Translations under genes and position numbers: made by a program
Source of the DNA: a virus
Virus record (IMG/VR): IMGVR_UViG_3300005614_000040
Location: 64,001-74,466 of that record
DNA length: 10,466 bases
Reading direction: 5' to 3' (one strand)
The notes under the pieces: generated by a model
What the model saw: only the letters and a program-made list of their open reading frames with translations
Told to the model about the DNA's origin: nothing
Database searches by the model: none
Shown: piece by piece, positions 2,875 to 10,466 of the stretch
Numbering within the stretch: the first letter of the stretch is position 1
Layout: each line of letters opens with the position of its first letter

Positions 2875-4857
2875 CTAACCAACCATCGTACCCAGAATCG
2901 GGTCTAATCCATTTGCCGGAGGAGTGTATCCGTCGCTTTCGTTATTTTTCGCGTCGTCCAAACTCACCACAGGCTCGAAGCTCGGTTGACCCCAAGGATC
3001 AGTAGCTTCTTCCATATACATATTGTAGGCAGCCCGCATCCGGAAGGCTTGCTTCTGCTCGGGCGTCCACGTCCAGCTTGCGATACCTGATTCCTGGATT
3101 TGCTTGAGCACGCGAGGCGCGTAACGTGGTTGCTGCGAAATCACGTCGGGAATGTCGTTGTGACGGCGAAGATTGACCTGACAGCGAAGGAATTCTTCGT
3201 AAAGGGTTTTCAGGAATGGCAGGTAGTTGACGAACTTCAGCAAGTTGCCGACCAGTAACGGCTGGAGGGCCGCCATGCGAGCTTTCTTCGCTCCGTCTTC
3301 CCGAGTTACCGGAATCCAATCGATGCGGCTACAGACTGCAATCACCAGCGGGTCGTTGGTCTTCTGCGCCTCGGCGATGATGGTGGGTTCGATGAACTTC
3401 GATGCCCCGGCGTCTTCGACACCAATTACAAATGGATGGTGCTTGACAGCCATATCAACGATTGCCTTAGCAAGCGCGATAGGGTTTGGAAAGCGGTCGC
3501 GAACGAGATCGTTGACATAGGCGCATCCGTTGGGTCCCCAGATTACCGAGCACCCAGTCGTAAAGTCGCGGTACTTTTTACCGCTGAAAGCAAAATCCCA
3601 GGTATGAGATACCAAACCTTGGAAGGGAATTTCGACGTGCGGCACGGTCGCGCGCAGCAACATCGGAAGATCGAATACCGCTTCCGCTTCCGGAATCGGA
3701 TTCTGGTTCATCTGGCCTTCGAAACTTCCTTCTTCATCTCCACGCTGACCGAATCTATCTCGGTTGTACTCAGAGAGCAGGTAGTCGTAAGAAAGCACTT
3801 TCGGCATCAGGAGGACGCAGCCATCGGCCCCAGCCTCCTGGTAGAACAAATTCGGATTGATGCTTTTGGCCAGGAGTTCGGATCGTACTTCCTGGCGTAC
3901 GGTGATCGCGCGGCCAATGAGAATCAAGGAATTTGATGCCTTGCTCTCGATCATCTCCCAGCCAGGGCCGGAGGTTGTGGTGCCCACCGTCGAATCGATT
4001 TCCAACCCGTACATATCCGAGTCGTGATAGCGCGTACCAATTTTGGTACAATAGCCGAACGGCCGGAGCATCTTCTTATTGATCTTGAAGTTCTTGTTGA
4101 CCTTCAAGCACTGTTCTTCGTTTTCCGAGTTGCGGTTAGAAACCGTGTCGTCGCAGTGCAGAATTTCGTAGTGGTATCCAGAAAGCGTCGAGGTGATCGA
4201 CGAGGCCATGATGGTCGGCTCTCTGCGCTTGATACCTTTAGCCAGCCACACGGGGCACTGGTATTCGAAGGCGTTGGTCAGGTCCTTCTCTAACAGACAA
4301 AACTGCGGGAAGAACAAATTCATCAGCGAAGGTTCCTGAAGCTTCATCAGGAAGTGACCTTTGAGTTCGTCGAGGAAGCTCACCGCGAGGTTGTCAGCGG
4401 CGGTCAAAATCAGGATACGAATTTCGGGGAAGTTCAGAATCCACTGAACCAGGTCGGCCAATCCCGTGGTGGATTTGAAGGAACCACGCGGATACAACAG
4501 CAGGCGGTTCTTAATTTCGCTTTGCTGCGAGAGTGGTTTACTGTCATCCTTCTTGACGAAGAAGTCGAAGAAAGGCCCGTGGTTCTCTTTGCGCAGAAGG
4601 TTGGCGGAGATCGGCTGCCCTGCGGTTTCCGGGTTAGTCTCGTGGACCATGTACCCGGCCAACCATTCCAGGTCTTGCTTGGAGCGCCGGATGACCTCCT
4701 GCGCCCAATGCTGATCGTGCAGCACGCCCTGGTCGAATAGGGTTTTCAGTCCTACCCGATTCGAGTCCAGGTACTCGTAGAGATCGTCATGGCCGACCGA
4801 AGTCCAATCTACGACGCCATCGACTGCATACTTTTCTACGAGGTCTGCAAGGTTCAC
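2875..4857 (-). CDS. terL: Terminase large subunit (660 aa).
   Basis: N-terminal ATPase motifs are present. A Walker A-like LLLYPRGSFKST resembles the deviant RQxGK[ST] of terminases. A Walker B-like ILHCDD is also present. The C-terminal half carries acidic residues typical of the RNaseH-like nuclease domain (VIGVEDAG, WDFAFSGKK). The start is GTG at 4855-4857, overlapping the stop of the upstream micro-ORF as GTGA. Confidence 0.8.
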   Translation of the reverse strand: MNLADLVEKYAVDGVVDWTSVGHDDLYEYLDSNRVGLKTLFDQGVLHDQHWAQEVIRRSKQDLEWLAGYMVHETNPETAGQPISANLLRKENHGPFFDFFVKKDDSKPLSQQSEIKNRLLLYPRGSFKSTTGLADLVQWILNFPEIRILILTAADNLAVSFLDELKGHFLMKLQEPSLMNLFFPQFCLLEKDLTNAFEYQCPVWLAKGIKRREPTIMASSITSTLSGYHYEILHCDDTVSNRNSENEEQCLKVNKNFKINKKMLRPFGYCTKIGTRYHDSDMYGLEIDSTVGTTTSGPGWEMIESKASNSLILIGRAITVRQEVRSELLAKSINPNLFYQEAGADGCVLLMPKVLSYDYLLSEYNRDRFGQRGDEEGSFEGQMNQNPIPEAEAVFDLPMLLRATVPHVEIPFQGLVSHTWDFAFSGKKYRDFTTGCSVIWGPNGCAYVNDLVRDRFPNPIALAKAIVDMAVKHHPFVIGVEDAGASKFIEPTIIAEAQKTNDPLVIAVCSRIDWIPVTREDGAKKARMAALQPLLVGNLLKFVNYLPFLKTLYEEFLRCQVNLRRHNDIPDVISQQPRYAPRVLKQIQESGIASWTWTPEQKQAFRMRAAYNMYMEEATDPWGQPSFEPVVSLDDAKNNESDGYTPPANGLDPILGTMVG

Positions 4858-7508: not shown

Positions 7509-8141
7509 TTATGCGCGGTCGATCACGAACTCAGTTACGGTCACGCCGTTGACGCCAGCCGTTCCGAACGTAAAGCTCGGGATGAAGTTGAGGTCGCTCG
7601 CTCCAACGCTGGTAGCCTGGGTGATGACTTGGAATGTGCCAGCGGTTCCGGATGGGGTGCCAACTGCGATGTTGACGTTATTGATCTGGTAGGTCATAAC
7701 GCCGCCGTTCAGGGTCTTGGTCTTCGAATCCCAGAACAGCTTGGTTTCGATCAGGAAGCTCTGGGTTCCTGCGCCGCCCGAACTCGTCGCCGCGCCGACC
7801 CAGAGGGCGTTGCCCCCGGTGGGCACATTTGAAGAGTTAAGCTGCGTGCCAGCCGCGATGACGGAAGCAGGCATCTGGTACAGCTTCGGCTCGAAGGTGT
7901 AGCTTCCGGCCGTCAAAACCTTTCCGGCAAGACGCACGACGAACGCATGGCCGTCATACACGGAACCAGCGATGTCGGGCGGAAAAGCGGCGACCAGGCC
8001 GCTTCCAGCAGGAAACGCTGGGGATGGCAGGGTGCCGTAGTTGGTCGTGCTGCTCGGGGTGATAAGCCCGGTCTCGGTGTTTACTGTGATTGACTGAAGA
8101 GGGAGGTCCTGCCAGCCAGCGGTTGTGTTGGTGTTTGCCAC
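7509..8141 (-). CDS. Ser/Thr/Gly/Asn-rich beta-type protein (210 aa). Probable virion structural or decoration protein.
   Basis: Intact ORF with GTG start at 8139-8141. AAGGA lies 7 nt upstream. The composition resembles capsid, tail or decoration proteins. It is a monocistronic unit bounded by a hairpin upstream and a strong terminator downstream. Confidence 0.65.
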   Translation of the reverse strand: MANTNTTAGWQDLPLQSITVNTETGLITPSSTTNYGTLPSPAFPAGSGLVAAFPPDIAGSVYDGHAFVVRLAGKVLTAGSYTFEPKLYQMPASVIAAGTQLNSSNVPTGGNALWVGAATSSGGAGTQSFLIETKLFWDSKTKTLNGGVMTYQINNVNIAVGTPSGTAGTFQVITQATSVGASDLNFIPSFTFGTAGVNGVTVTEFVIDRA

Positions 8142-8160
8142 GGTCGTGTCCTTGTGAAAA

Positions 8161-8190
8161 TAGCTCAGACACCTTGCGGCAGTCTGAAAA
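8161..8190 (-). terminator. Possible weak terminator or processing hairpin between the tRNA block and the 210-aa gene.
   Basis: Inverted repeat TCAGAC...GTCTGA around 8164-8187. On the minus strand it is followed by AGCTATTTTCAC. Confidence 0.25.
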
Positions 8191-8206
8191 GAAATTGTCC
8201 AGAAAA

Positions 8207-8282
8207 TGGACTCGGCGGCGGGAATCCAACCCGCAACTACTCGGTTAGGAACCGAGGACCCATGCTTTTAGGTGACGCCGAG
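8207..8282 (-). tRNA. tRNA-Arg (anticodon CCU, decodes AGG).
   Basis: Hand fold, 76 nt. Acceptor CTCGGCG/CGCCGAG is a perfect 7 bp. D-stem ACCT/GGGT. Anticodon stem CTCGG/CCGAG with loop TTCCTAA. T-stem GCGGG/CCCGC. CCA is encoded. The D-loop has C19 and the T-loop has G56, a compensatory swap of the usual G19:C56 pair. Confidence 0.7.
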
Positions 8283-8283
8283 A

Positions 8284-8359
8284 TGGAGAACCCGCCCGGA
8301 TTCAAACCGGGATATCAACCTTCGGAGGGTTGTGCTCTATTCTTTTGAACTACGGGTTC
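8284..8359 (-). tRNA. tRNA-Arg (anticodon CCG, decodes CGG).
   Basis: Hand fold, 76 nt. Acceptor GAACCCG/CGGGTTC. Anticodon stem CAACC/GGTTG with loop CTCCGAA. T-stem CCCGG/CCGGG with loop TTTGAAT. CCA is encoded. An A19:U56 covariation is present. A 1-nt spacer separates it from the preceding tRNA. Confidence 0.7.
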
Positions 8360-8364
8360 GTAGG

Positions 8365-8439
8365 TGGGGCGCGGACGAGGATTCAAACCTCGGTTCAGGG
8401 CTTAGAAGGACCTGGCTTATTCCATTAGCTGATCCGCGC
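8365..8439 (-). tRNA. tRNA-Arg (anticodon UCU, decodes AGA). Probable.
   Basis: Hand fold, 75 nt. Acceptor GCGCGGA/TCCGCGC is perfect. T-arm CGAGG-TTTGAAT-CCTCG. D-loop has GG. Anticodon loop CTTCTAA. The anticodon stem has one U:C mismatch and the D-stem has 3 bp. Confidence 0.55.
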
Positions 8440-8605
8440 TTATTTCTTCGGAATGAATCCGCCGCGCGACGCGAAGTTAATGCTGAAAGGCCGGGTAACC
8501 TGGGTGGTACCGTTGTGGTACGTTACTTCGAGGGCCTTACCGCGTTCGAGTCTAGGAGTCATTATTTTGAATTGTACCACAGACAGAGAAATCTGTCAAG
8601 GAAAT

Positions 8606-8681
8606 TGGTGGGTCCGGAGGGAATCGAACCCTCATCACGTCGCTTAAAAGGCGGGTCTCTAGCCAGTTGAGTTACGAACCC
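8606..8681 (-). tRNA. tRNA-Lys (anticodon UUU) with an atypical, weak anticodon stem.
   Basis: Hand fold, 76 nt. Acceptor GGGTTCG/CGGACCC has one G:U. T-arm GAGGG-TTCGATT-CCCTC. D-loop has GG. Anticodon loop CTTTTAA with U33 and A37. The two outer base pairs of the anticodon stem are C:C and C:A mismatches. Confidence 0.55.
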
Positions 8682-8682
8682 T

Positions 8683-8759
8683 TGGTGCGCCGGGCTGGAT
8701 TTGAACCAGCATCATTCTCCTTAAGAGGGAGATATAATCAGCCGTTATACGACCGACGC
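8683..8759 (-). tRNA. tRNA-Lys (anticodon CUU).
   Basis: Hand fold, 77 nt. Acceptor GCGTCGG/CCGGCGC has one G:U. Anticodon stem TCTCC/GGAGA with loop CTCTTAA. T-arm GCTGG-TTCAAAT-CCAGC. CCA is encoded. Only 1 nt separates it from the preceding tRNA-Lys(UUU). Confidence 0.65.
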
Positions 8760-8761
8760 AA

Positions 8762-8855
8762 TGGTAGAGGAGGAGGGAATCGAACCCTTACTGGCATCGG
8801 TCATCTACCGACTACAGAGGCTATAAGGCTCCGCCGCGCGCCCGCGCTCTCCTCT
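8762..8855 (-). ncRNA. tRNA-like element (about 94 nt with CCA) with canonical 3' half but an aberrant 5' half and anticodon region. Possibly a degenerate long-variable-arm tRNA or a tRNA 3'-fragment.
   Basis: Textbook T-arm AAGGG-TTCGATT-CCCTC, acceptor 3' strand CTCCTCT, discriminator A and CCA. A perfectly complementary AGAGGAG lies 94 nt away, but both strands are low complexity. The intervening sequence is extremely GC-rich (CGCGGGCGCGCGGCGG). No anticodon loop with U33 carrying a Ser/Leu/Tyr anticodon could be drawn. The 5' 50 nt lie inside the 3' end of the GT2 coding sequence. Confidence 0.35.
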
Positions 8856-9479
8856 AAAAAATTCTTTCGGCAGACTATTCCTGTCCACCACAGGCCACCC
8901 TGTAGGTTTCTGGTTGGCGGAGTGGAGCACGCAAACCATATTATCACCTGCGGGTTTGGAAGTAAACCAAGGAAACGCCCGGTTCACAAAAATCAGGTCT
9001 TCGCCGTAGGAAACTTTTTCGTCGAACAGATGGCCGAGTGCCCACTGTCGGCGGTAAATCAGCGTTGCGCCCCACAAGCAACTACCCGAGTACCGCGACG
9101 CCTCGCCTGTGTTTTCGTTCCAAAAGTAACAGGAACCGTACCCACCCAGCTTCAATTCTTCCGCGCCCATCATTGCCACTTGATCGGCAAGGCGGTACGG
9201 AGAAGACCAATCGTCGGCATCAAAATGGCAGATAAACTCACCGCGCGCAACCCGAATACCTGCGTTTCGTTTTTCGGCAAGGTTCGCGGCTGGCTTGAAA
9301 ATGTAGGTGACACCTGGTACATCTTTGACCAGGTCGGCGATAGGTTCATCGCCGTCATCTACAACAATGAGTTCCTTGTTCGGCCAAGTCTGGGATAGGT
9401 AACACTCGATGGCGCGGACGACGCGACCTCGCATGTTGTGGTGACAAAGCAAAACCGACACCATCTCAGTTGTGGACAT
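8805..9479 (-). CDS. Glycosyltransferase family 2 (GT-A fold), 224 aa.
   Basis: The N-terminal beta1-alpha1 signature is VSVLLCHHNMRGRVVRAIECYLSQTWPNKELIVVDDGDEP, of the V-S-V-x-x-x-x-x-N ... E-I-I-V-V-D-D-G type. A downstream DXD-type motif FDADDW is present. The ATG at 9477-9479 overlaps the stop of the upstream GT by 14 nt. Confidence 0.75.
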   Translation of the reverse strand: MSTTEMVSVLLCHHNMRGRVVRAIECYLSQTWPNKELIVVDDGDEPIADLVKDVPGVTYIFKPAANLAEKRNAGIRVARGEFICHFDADDWSSPYRLADQVAMMGAEELKLGGYGSCYFWNENTGEASRYSGSCLWGATLIYRRQWALGHLFDEKVSYGEDLIFVNRAFPWFTSKPAGDNMVCVLHSANQKPTGWPVVDRNSLPKEFFRGERGRAAEPYSLCSR

Positions 9480-10077
9480 ACATCAAATCCCTGGCCACAC
9501 CCCACTTCAATTTCTTCGTCAAATCCTGCAGCGTTGTTCTGTCTACGCCGGAGCACGCGGGCACCAGGGGTTTGTTCAGCCAACCTTTGAACTTGGCGCG
9601 TTTCACTAAGAACGATGGCTTATATCCCGGAAAGCCGGGTTTGCCAAGCTGCAGGACTCGGTAGCCGTCAATTCCGCAGGTCTCAGGCCCGGTCAAGGTT
9701 GACTCACACAGCACCAGATCGAGATTATTCCTGACCGCCTCGGTCAACATTCTTTGTGTCCACTGCGGCGGATAGTAGCAGTCTTCGCAGGGAAAGCAAA
9801 CCCATTTACCTTTGGCCTGGTTAAGCCCGACTTCTGATGACCAGTAGCAGTCTGATACTTTGATCTTTCCGGCCGTTCGCAGATAGCGAAACCGCTTGTC
9901 CTTCAACTTCTCGACGATCCGCTTCTGCTGGTGCGCGACGGTTTTGTCTTCCGTGTTGTCGGTTACGATCACTTCGTAGTCTTCGTGGGTTTGACCCTTG
10001 ATTGACCACAAACACGCCGCCAGGAAATCTGGTCGATTGTAGAGCGAAACAACGTAGCTGACTTCGACCTGGGGCAT
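9466..10077 (-). CDS. Glycosyltransferase family 2-like (about 203 aa from MPQVEV).
   Basis: GT2 N-terminal signature EVSYVVSLYNRPDFLAACLWSIKGQTHEDYEVIVTDNTED. The ATG is at 10075-10077. The longer track ORF (to 10278) would run through the tRNA-Pro gene, so the internal start is preferred. Confidence 0.65.
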   Translation of the reverse strand: MPQVEVSYVVSLYNRPDFLAACLWSIKGQTHEDYEVIVTDNTEDKTVAHQQKRIVEKLKDKRFRYLRTAGKIKVSDCYWSSEVGLNQAKGKWVCFPCEDCYYPPQWTQRMLTEAVRNNLDLVLCESTLTGPETCGIDGYRVLQLGKPGFPGYKPSFLVKRAKFKGWLNKPLVPACSGVDRTTLQDLTKKLKWGVARDLMYVHN

Positions 10078-10234
10078 TTTTAATGGCACCGGACTGGCGA
10101 ATTGGACGCCACTCGGAGGTTTTGGAGACCTCTGTGATCCCAGATCGTCCGGCAAAAATGGAGCACCCGAGTGGAGTCTAACCACCGTCTCGATGTTCGT
10201 AGCATCGTGTCCTATACGTTGAACGACAGGCGCA

Positions 10235-10310
10235 TGGTCGGAAAGGTGAGATTCGAACTCACGTCGTCTCGCTCCCAAAGCGAGTGCCTAAGCCTCTAGG
10301 CTACTTTCCG
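10235..10310 (-). tRNA. tRNA-Pro (anticodon UGG).
   Basis: Fully canonical hand fold, 76 nt. Acceptor CGGAAAG/CTTTCCG. D-stem GCCT/AGGC with GG in the loop. Anticodon stem CTCGC/GCGAG with loop TTTGGGA. T-arm GTGAG-TTCGAAT-CTCAC. Discriminator A and CCA are encoded. Confidence 0.85.
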
Positions 10311-10403: not shown

Positions 10404-10466
10404 TGGTGCCAACTCAGGGAGTTCAACCCTGCTCTACTGTGCTTCAAACAGTCGTAGCGAGCGCGT
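10404..10466 (-). tRNA. tRNA-Phe (anticodon GAA), truncated by the window edge. The 3' 63 nt are visible.
   Basis: T-arm CAGGG-TTGAACT-CCCTG. Acceptor 3' strand AGTTGGC plus A and CCA. Anticodon stem ACTGT/ACAGT with loop TTGAAGC. It begins 1 nt after the preceding tRNA. Confidence 0.5.

Follow-up and report, generated by a model that had tools for sequence, protein, structure and literature searches.

Why would a phage encode, side by side, tRNA-Arg genes for three rare arginine codons? The question is raised by a 10,466-nt stretch of viral DNA (positions 64,001 to 74,466 of IMG/VR virus record IMGVR_UViG_3300005614_000040; "the window" below means this whole stretch), in which three adjacent tRNA-Arg genes occupy 233 nt of the minus strand (8207-8439). 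The initial annotation proposed that this complete trio compensates for a host poor in the corresponding tRNAs or, alternatively, replaces host tRNA-Arg destroyed by an anticodon nuclease. Our analysis instead points to the trio as the closing part of a large tRNA array passed on vertically in a phage lineage, and not as a separate kit for rare codons. The array probably serves general independence from the host tRNA pool. The trio alone adds little, as phage tRNA arrays and their competing purposes are already well known. The more interesting by-products are the clade-wide array, a covarying elbow pair and an odd tRNA(UAU).

The tRNA-Arg trio

The three genes are recovered by ARAGORN and by the Rfam covariance model RF00005 (gathering score 29 bits), which together were used for tRNA calling. 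The calls lie at exactly the coordinates first proposed, and all three anticodons that had been folded by hand (CCU, CCG and UCU) are right. A covariance-model scan had been named earlier as a possible source of refutation; the model used here places the same tRNAs above its threshold. The CCU gene passes RF00005 only with permissive filters, the CCG and UCU genes with default filters.

8207..8282, minus strand: tRNA-Arg(CCU), 76 nt, CCA encoded, U73; ARAGORN 104.7, RF00005 44.6 bits
8284..8359, minus strand: tRNA-Arg(CCG), 76 nt, CCA encoded, U73; ARAGORN 111.4, RF00005 55.8 bits
8365..8439, minus strand: tRNA-Arg(UCU), 75 nt, CCA encoded, C73; ARAGORN 108.2, RF00005 35.9 bits

The genes are separated by spacers of 1 and 5 nt. 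Their 7-nt anticodon loops have the form YU-NNN-AA (UUCCUAA in CCU, CUCCGAA in CCG and CUUCUAA in UCU), with U33, a purine at 37 (A37) and A38 in all three, and the anticodons would supply decoders of AGG, CGG and AGA, as had been suggested. In the drawn cloverleaves, a 7-nt anticodon loop, regular stems and an encoded CCA are present on all eight genes that ARAGORN calls in the window with default settings. tRNA-Arg(CCU) has the D loop AAAAGCAU and the T loop UUGGAUU, with a C19-G56 elbow pair. The weakest of the trio is tRNA-Arg(UCU): its anticodon stem contains the mismatch U30.C40, and one more base than usual lies between its acceptor and D stems.

The identity elements of arginyl-tRNA synthetase (ArgRS) in Escherichia coli are A20, C35 and U36 or G36. 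All three trio tRNAs carry these elements, and their D loops (AAAAG-C-A-U, AAAAG-A-A-UA and AAUG-G-A-A-UA) put an A after G18-N19. The discriminator of E. coli tRNA-Arg, a minor identity element, is A73 or G73. No such purine is found in the trio, which has U73, U73 and C73.

An array shared with related phages

The trio closes a co-oriented array that extends to the end of the window. Beyond the three genes described initially, the array contains a tRNA-Arg(ACG), two tRNA-Lys, two tRNA-Pro, two diverged tRNA-like genes and a cut tRNA-Phe, and the end of the window proves to be the end of a contig. The order along the minus strand is Phe (cut), Pro(CGG), Pro(UGG), Arg(ACG), Trp-like, two glycosyltransferases, tRNA(UAU), Lys(CUU), Lys(UUU), a spacer and the trio, which gives eight canonical, two diverged and one truncated tRNA genes within 2.3 kb of tRNA sequence.

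10404..10466, minus strand: 3' two-thirds of tRNA-Phe(GAA), read from the sequence, cut by the window and contig end
10316..10402, minus strand: tRNA-Pro(CGG), 87 nt; ARAGORN, Rfam 44.9 bits (permissive filters)
10235..10310, minus strand: tRNA-Pro(UGG); ARAGORN, Rfam 62.9 bits
10159..10233, minus strand: tRNA-Arg(ACG), the fourth Arg isoacceptor, U73, 1.7 kb upstream of the trio; ARAGORN, Rfam
10084..10153, minus strand: diverged tRNA-Trp(CCA)-like gene; hand fold and alignment with the Trp(CCA) of relatives
9466..10077, minus strand: family-2 glycosyltransferase, 203 residues; Pfam PF00535
8805..9479, minus strand: family-2 glycosyltransferase, 224 residues; Pfam PF00535, E 7.8e-19
8762..8855, minus strand: non-canonical tRNA-like gene (UAU); ARAGORN only at relaxed thresholds
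8683..8759, minus strand: tRNA-Lys(CUU); ARAGORN, Rfam
8606..8681, minus strand: tRNA-Lys(UUU); ARAGORN, Rfam

The phage carries the full bacterial set of four Arg isoacceptors as well as the two Lys isoacceptors. The window is the reverse complement of the final 10,466 nt of the 74,477-nt ENA metagenome contig ERZ27252105 k141_4674152, and an independent 3.1-kb contig (Logan SRR5508097, locus L003 in our numbering) begins at exactly the base, inside tRNA-Phe, where the 74.5-kb contig ends. Two assemblies that share one end base therefore indicate either an assembly-graph branch or repeat or the physical end of the genome. Part of the array is probably missing beyond this point, and tRNA-Phe(GAA) precedes tRNA-Pro in every related array.

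A megablast search with the whole window against 50,697 phage records gives no match, and blastn in distant mode with the array gives only short generic tRNA matches to unrelated phages. Among cultured phages, the nearest by portal protein is Tunturi 3 of Tunturiibacter, with 32% identity across 95% of that protein. This phage of Acidobacteriota is a podovirus with a 97.6-kb genome, comes from Arctic soil and carries three tRNAs according to its authors (PMC11924767). ARAGORN finds one or two tRNAs in this genome, and RNA-repair-like genes are located at 50823-52049, 57272-58462 and 64650-65207 (L014) and at 46940-47518 (L013) of its record PP885686.1. The probe that found the array-bearing relatives is a 210-residue protein encoded immediately downstream of the trio (7509-8141). 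In metagenome contigs of IMG/VR and JGI, the genes of its homologues (30-61% identity) repeatedly follow a large array of co-oriented tRNA genes. The presence or absence of the array was judged within 10-20 kb per locus, and within the DNA so examined no array was seen in relatives found by their terminase (L004-L010) or glycosyltransferase (L011, L012).

The arrays comprise 24-27 tRNAs in L016/L040, 22 in L018, 30 (for 19 amino acids) in L042 and 26 in L045, and partial arrays are present in L017, L046, L053, L055 and L058. The same gene order up to the gene of the 210-residue protein is shared by all of these loci. Its shared part includes ...Thr, His, (Ala), Phe, Pro, Pro, Arg(ACG, or GCG and UCG), Trp, Met/Ile2(CAU) and tRNA(UAU), then the two Lys genes (CUU before UUU), the Arg block in the order UCU, CCU, CCG, and lastly Val, Ile and Gly. 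The UCU/CCU/CCG block is complete in L018, L042, L055, L058 and the window, and relaxed thresholds add diverged Arg genes in L040, L017 and L046. The window differs from its relatives by lacking the Val, Ile and Gly genes, by a spacer of 166 nt instead of 4-7 nt before the trio, and by the trio order UCU-CCG-CCU instead of UCU-CCU-CCG. This swap does not result from a one-base anticodon switch, since each Arg tRNA of the window is nearest to the relatives' tRNA with the same anticodon. The difference in order is therefore a rearrangement, a conclusion that is only moderately firm at identities of 50-71%. Judged by its synteny in relatives, the large array is vertically inherited within this phage lineage, and taken as a whole it appears to be a near-complete decoder set of the phage's own.

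Reading of translations by eye revealed no tRNA repair or processing genes beside the relatives' arrays, only lysozyme-like, HExxH metallopeptidase-like and HNH/GIY-YIG-like open reading frames (ORFs). GIY-YIG- and HNH-like ORFs, likewise recognised by eye, lie between tRNA genes in L042 (5133-6041) and L018 (6192-6773), and mobile genes seem to settle preferentially in the arrays. In the window, the two overlapping glycosyltransferase genes are placed in the middle of the array, where relatives carry the CAU tRNA. The best bacterial homologues of the 224-residue glycosyltransferase are mostly from metagenome-assembled Acidobacteriota (Solibacteraceae, Bryobacterales; 30-36% identity), and together with the link to Tunturi 3 they hint at an acidobacterial host. 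Together these loci reveal a conserved array, 22-30 tRNAs in size and not described before, in a clade of soil phages of intermediate genome size (about 60-105 kb). This clade probably infects Acidobacteriota, a poorly studied host phylum.

The stems of the array tRNAs are maintained by compensatory evolution. In 25 Arg tRNAs of the arrays, 93.5% of the stem cells of the alignment are paired, compared with 59.7% after shuffling (0 of 500 shuffles reach as high a value), and 176 cells are changed on both sides; slid controls are 34-50% paired. Orthologous tRNAs are only 50-70% identical, yet their stems are preserved. Because tRNAs with the same anticodons are syntenic in the relatives and the stem changes are compensatory, the trio genes are predicted to be functional elongator tRNA-Arg genes, neither chance matches nor decayed pseudogenes.

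A further sign of selection lies at the elbow, where the G19-C56 pair, almost invariant in other tRNAs, is replaced in all four Arg tRNAs of the window: by U19-A56 in Arg(ACG), by A19-U56 in both Arg(CCG) and Arg(UCU), and by C19-G56 in Arg(CCU). Replacements occur in the arrays of the window, L017, L018, L040, L042, L045, L053, L055 and L058. C56 is absent in 44 of 153 array tRNAs, and in 42 of these 44 the D loop has a G followed by the complementary base. The loss is concentrated in Arg tRNAs (20 of 29, versus 24 of the 124 others; Fisher p = 5.5e-7). In the aligned Arg set, the 19-56 pair is A-U in nine, C-G in six, G-C in four and U-A in three tRNAs. This tertiary covariation provides further evidence of selection on the folded L-shape. 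The discriminators of the 29 array Arg tRNAs are also unusual, with U in 15, C in 7, A in 7 and G in none. The 19-56 covariation and the odd discriminators constitute useful natural variation for studies of tRNA structure and identity.

Codon use and the benefit of the array

Rare-codon compensation would require that the host is short of tRNA for AGA, AGG and CGG and that phage genes need these codons more than host genes do. The anticodons of the trio fit this explanation, as they match the three Arg codons usually rarest in bacteria, and a low level of host tRNA can block a phage, as in the case of Leu-TAA in Synechococcus (PMC11726456). In the model of Bailly-Bechet et al. 2007, as cited in PMC10264068, the cognate codons are commoner in the phage than in the host. 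Codons were counted in 28 called genes (5238 codons) from 17.6 kb of the 74.5-kb contig, giving AGA 10, AGG 11, CGG 44, CGA 29, CGT 52 and CGC 101. AGA and AGG each account for 4% of the Arg codons, the trio-cognate codons for 1.2% of all codons, and AGA plus AGG for 0.4%. Absence of these codons from the phage ORFs had been named initially as a sign against the trio's proposed role; all three are present, though rare. The major head gene contains a single trio-cognate codon (one AGG, no AGA and no CGG), which argues against a special need for them.

The comparison with the host was made by proxy, using genome fragments of Acidobacteriota. Per 1000 codons, the phage has AGA 1.9, AGG 2.1 and CGG 8.4, and the fragments have AGA 0.6-9.3, AGG 1.9-8.2 and CGG 10.7-40.6. 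The low AGA and AGG values of the candidate host phylum are in line with compensation, but the use of the trio codons by the phage is not above this proxy, and for CGG it is lower. Two further observations speak for compensation. First, in array-bearing relatives at about 50% G+C, AGA is a leading Arg codon (7.7-14.2 per 1000). Second, AGA and AGG are about five times commoner in the two in-array glycosyltransferase genes than in the other phage genes. However, Arg codon choice in the relatives tracks G+C with or without a visible array, with AGA/AGG making up 36-39% of Arg codons in the array-bearing relatives at about 50% G+C versus 9% in the window phage at 55.5%. In addition, the array shows no selectivity for rare codons. 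It contains complete Arg and Lys families, it also serves the commonest codons (through Arg(ACG), Lys, Pro and Phe tRNAs), and in relatives it spans about 19 amino acids. From the original proposal of a complete trio for three rare Arg codons, the gene identities, the anticodons and the codons that they would decode can be retained. Selection of the trio as a unit is not supported, given Arg(ACG), the broad array and the low codon use. We therefore consider rare-codon compensation unlikely.

The completeness of the array, a phage codon use not above the proxy and the tracking of G+C together favour a general supply of tRNA. Large phage tRNA sets combined with a host-matching codon profile have been taken as an argument against codon compensation, and independence from the host pool was likewise the reading reached for the 33-tRNA arrays of mycobacteriophages (PMC10264068). 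The retention of tRNAs for the almost unused AGA and AGG provides one more natural case against simple codon compensation and for whole-pool independence.

The surroundings of the trio contain putative signals for its expression:

8571..8599, minus strand: putative sigma-70-type promoter close to consensus, TTGACA-17 nt-TACAAT, its -10 hexamer preceded by TG, 11 of 12 matches
8440..8562, minus strand: possible leaderless 40-codon ORF (MTPRLERGKALEVTYHNGTTQVTRPFSINFASRGGFIPKK), read from the sequence, putatively coding
8157..8211, minus strand: two hairpins 3' of the trio, GUCCAUUUUCUGGAC at 8211-8197 and UCAGACUGCC-GCAA-GGUGUCUGA at 8187-8165, then GCUAUUUU

The promoter follows tRNA-Lys(UUU) and precedes tRNA-Arg(UCU), the first gene of the trio, by about 130 nt. 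Only two copies of the type TTGACA-17-TG-n-TACAAT are found in 17.6 kb, both intergenic and on the coding strand. From the second (L001 13132-13160, plus strand) it is 5 nt to the ATG that starts an endonuclease VII/HNH-like gene located after the major head gene, and an ATG 8 nt after the trio promoter opens the 40-codon ORF. An ATG within 5-8 nt of both promoters therefore implies leaderless mRNAs. The 40-codon ORF fills the spacer between promoter and trio, its stop codon abutting the first tRNA. It has no homologue in the related loci and is specific to the window phage. Two interpretations of this spacer were rejected: it shows no similarity, beyond the promoter, to a decayed tRNA or an endonuclease-gene remnant, and the four scattered Arg codons among 40 do not support an Arg-sensing leader peptide. 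The hairpins and the U-tract are weakly indicative of a terminator, and terminator-like sites are no more numerous in the region than expected from shuffling.

Polycistronic tRNA precursors are processed by RNase P. In the proposed mechanism, host RNA polymerase would transcribe the trio from the 8599-8571 promoter, probably also by read-through from upstream, and RNase P cuts plus slight 3' trimming would release the mature tRNAs. These two steps should suffice, as the spacers measure only 1 and 5 nt and CCA is encoded. Host ArgRS would then charge the three tRNAs through A20, C35 and U36 or G36, and the charged tRNAs would read AGA/AGG, CGG and AGG. The benefit would most likely be that phage translation is freed from the host tRNA pool as a whole, which may be small in slow-growing soil hosts, may decay or may be attacked during infection. 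A boost to three specially needed codons is probably not the benefit.

Several points weigh against general pool independence. The phage and host comparison of codons and tRNAs relies on the Acidobacteriota proxy. Given the 36-39% AGA/AGG in relatives, compensation could have driven the acquisition of the block in an AT-richer ancestor, and early genes in the other 57 kb might use the trio codons more. Expression of the trio is a prediction made from its sequence. Moreover, tRNA-Arg(UCU) reaches no more than 35.9 bits and contains a mismatched stem pair, and all three tRNAs carry a pyrimidine at position 73, unlike E. coli tRNA-Arg, so that efficient charging is assumed.

The second proposal of the initial annotation is taken here as a counter-defence specific to Arg: on infection, a colicin D-like or other nuclease of the host or of a competitor would destroy host tRNA-Arg, and the phage copies would act as resistant replacements. 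For other amino acids, rescue of infection from tRNA-cleaving defences by phage tRNAs is proven: tRNA-Lys counters PARIS (PMC11464382), whereas tRNA-Tyr and tRNA-Lys counter Retron-Eco7 and PrrC (PMC11555353). Colicin D is named in the general hypothesis (PMC10264068). All four Arg isoacceptors are present, as the replacement of a whole targeted family would need, and the Arg tRNAs are structurally the oddest of the group, with their frequent loss of C56 and no G73. The annotation of Tunturi 3 lists a kinase, an RNA 2'-phosphotransferase and two RNA ligases, which hints at tRNA damage in such hosts; in this phage without the array, the repair-like set may be another way of meeting one and the same pressure from the host. 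However, the anticodon loops of the trio are canonical and the odd features are found at 19-56 and 73 instead. The array spans nearly all amino acids and does not single out Arg, and no genes for tRNA repair or nuclease inhibition are seen beside the arrays in the translations read by eye. On balance, an Arg-specific counter-defence appears quite improbable.

The trio could also be a dispensable passenger, inherited with the array under weak selection or drift and reshuffled by rearrangement and invading mobile genes. In line with this, the content of the array varies and the trio order differs between the window and its relatives; different arrays carry inserted glycosyltransferase, GIY-YIG or HNH genes; no array is seen at this place in several relatives or in Tunturi 3; and the Trp, UAU and UCU members are degenerate enough to drop below detection thresholds. 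But stems and the 19-56 pair are kept by compensatory changes at 50-70% identity, A20, C35, U33 and the encoded CCA are conserved, and the trio has its own strong predicted promoter. Together these features indicate purifying selection on function, and we give the passenger explanation little credence.

Least probable of all, and highly doubtful, is the idea that the array tRNAs, Arg most of all, have been remodelled in the body (elbow, pyrimidine 73, extra arms) to escape a host factor that reads the tRNA body and not the anticodon loop, which could for example be an elbow- or acceptor-reading tRNA-Arg nuclease of Acidobacteriota; if true, it would mean structure-level evasion of tRNA-targeting immunity and offer a handle to find the nuclease.

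Known counterparts and neighbouring features

Among known systems, the arrays of cluster C1 mycobacteriophages, with about 33 tRNAs per phage (van den Berg et al. 2023, PMC10264068), resemble the present array in being compact, co-oriented, specific for most amino acids, carried by a virulent phage and so complete that a handful of rare codons cannot account for them. They belong to another lineage and host, whereas here the array is positioned directly upstream of a structural and packaging module in a genome of ~75 kb with an SU10-type portal. The same-strand genes downstream of the array encode the large terminase (PHROG 38), the SU10-type portal (PF23899, E 3e-31) and, beyond the window, the major head protein.

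The tRNA-rich region of T5 (PMC11464382, PMC11555353) likewise groups multiple tRNAs, able to stand in for those of the host, in the genome of a lytic phage. For T5, unlike the window phage, the nuclease, the target and the rescue phenotype are defined. Tunturi 5, a jumbo phage of Acidobacteriota with 43 tRNA genes including 5 tRNA-Arg (PMC11924767), is a soil phage of the probable host phylum and shares the near-complete tRNA set with several Arg isoacceptors. However, it is an unrelated jumbo myovirus, and the portal relative of the window phage is Tunturi 3, with one to three tRNAs.

An AGA reader within a polycistronic tRNA cluster is also encoded by phage T4. There, tRNA-Arg(UCU) is the sole Arg species among eight tRNAs, has the canonical G19-C56 pair and is processed by host RNase P. 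The window phage differs from T4 in its four Arg tRNAs, altered elbow pairs and pyrimidine discriminators.

A public gene call of 112 residues on the opposite strand (window 8332-8670, plus strand; L001 1797-2135, minus strand) overlaps tRNA-Lys(UUU), the promoter spacer and two of the Arg tRNAs, and is almost certainly spurious. The anticodon stem of tRNA-Lys(UUU) has only three Watson-Crick pairs, with the mismatches C27.C43 and C28.A42. PrrC and PARIS have tRNA-Lys(UUU) as their classic substrate, and the weak stem may be relevant in that respect.

Default tRNA finders overlook several array members, which calls for caution in annotation. The Trp(CCA)-like gene is called neither by default ARAGORN nor by Rfam at E<10. 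It has the anticodon loop CUCCAAA, G73-CCA, the T loop UCCAAUU and a weak D arm with almost no D stem, and 12 of its 15 pairs show compensatory change relative to the syntenic Trp(CCA) of relatives.

The window copy of tRNA(UAU), which is missed by default ARAGORN and Rfam, overlaps the last 17 codons of the glycosyltransferase ORF. It possesses a long variable arm, a 9-nt anticodon loop (CCUUAUAGC) whose core YUUAUAR reads UAU, a 31.39 mismatch and A73-CCA. The gene is kept syntenically just before tRNA-Lys(CUU) in L017 (578-671), L018 (7355-7447) and L016 (about 4050-4141), with compensatory change in 14 of 27 pairs across four phages. At the same position, L053 (519-596) carries a perfectly canonical class-I tRNA-Ile(UAU). 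Candidate amino-acid identities for the non-canonical form are Ile or a Tyr-like one.

tRNA-Pro(CGG) of the window has a 12-nt stem-loop inserted in the variable region and retains C1-G72 and A73 of tRNA-Pro. Similar variable-arm stem-loops, in tRNAs of 81-87 nt that normally belong to class I, are present in the relatives' Arg(ACG), Asn(GUU), Gly(UCC) and Thr(UGU). The class-I tRNAs with inserted arms in relatives are located as follows:

L042: 8192-8278
L040: 6223-6307 and 9812-9893
L018: 5930-6011 and 8010-8091

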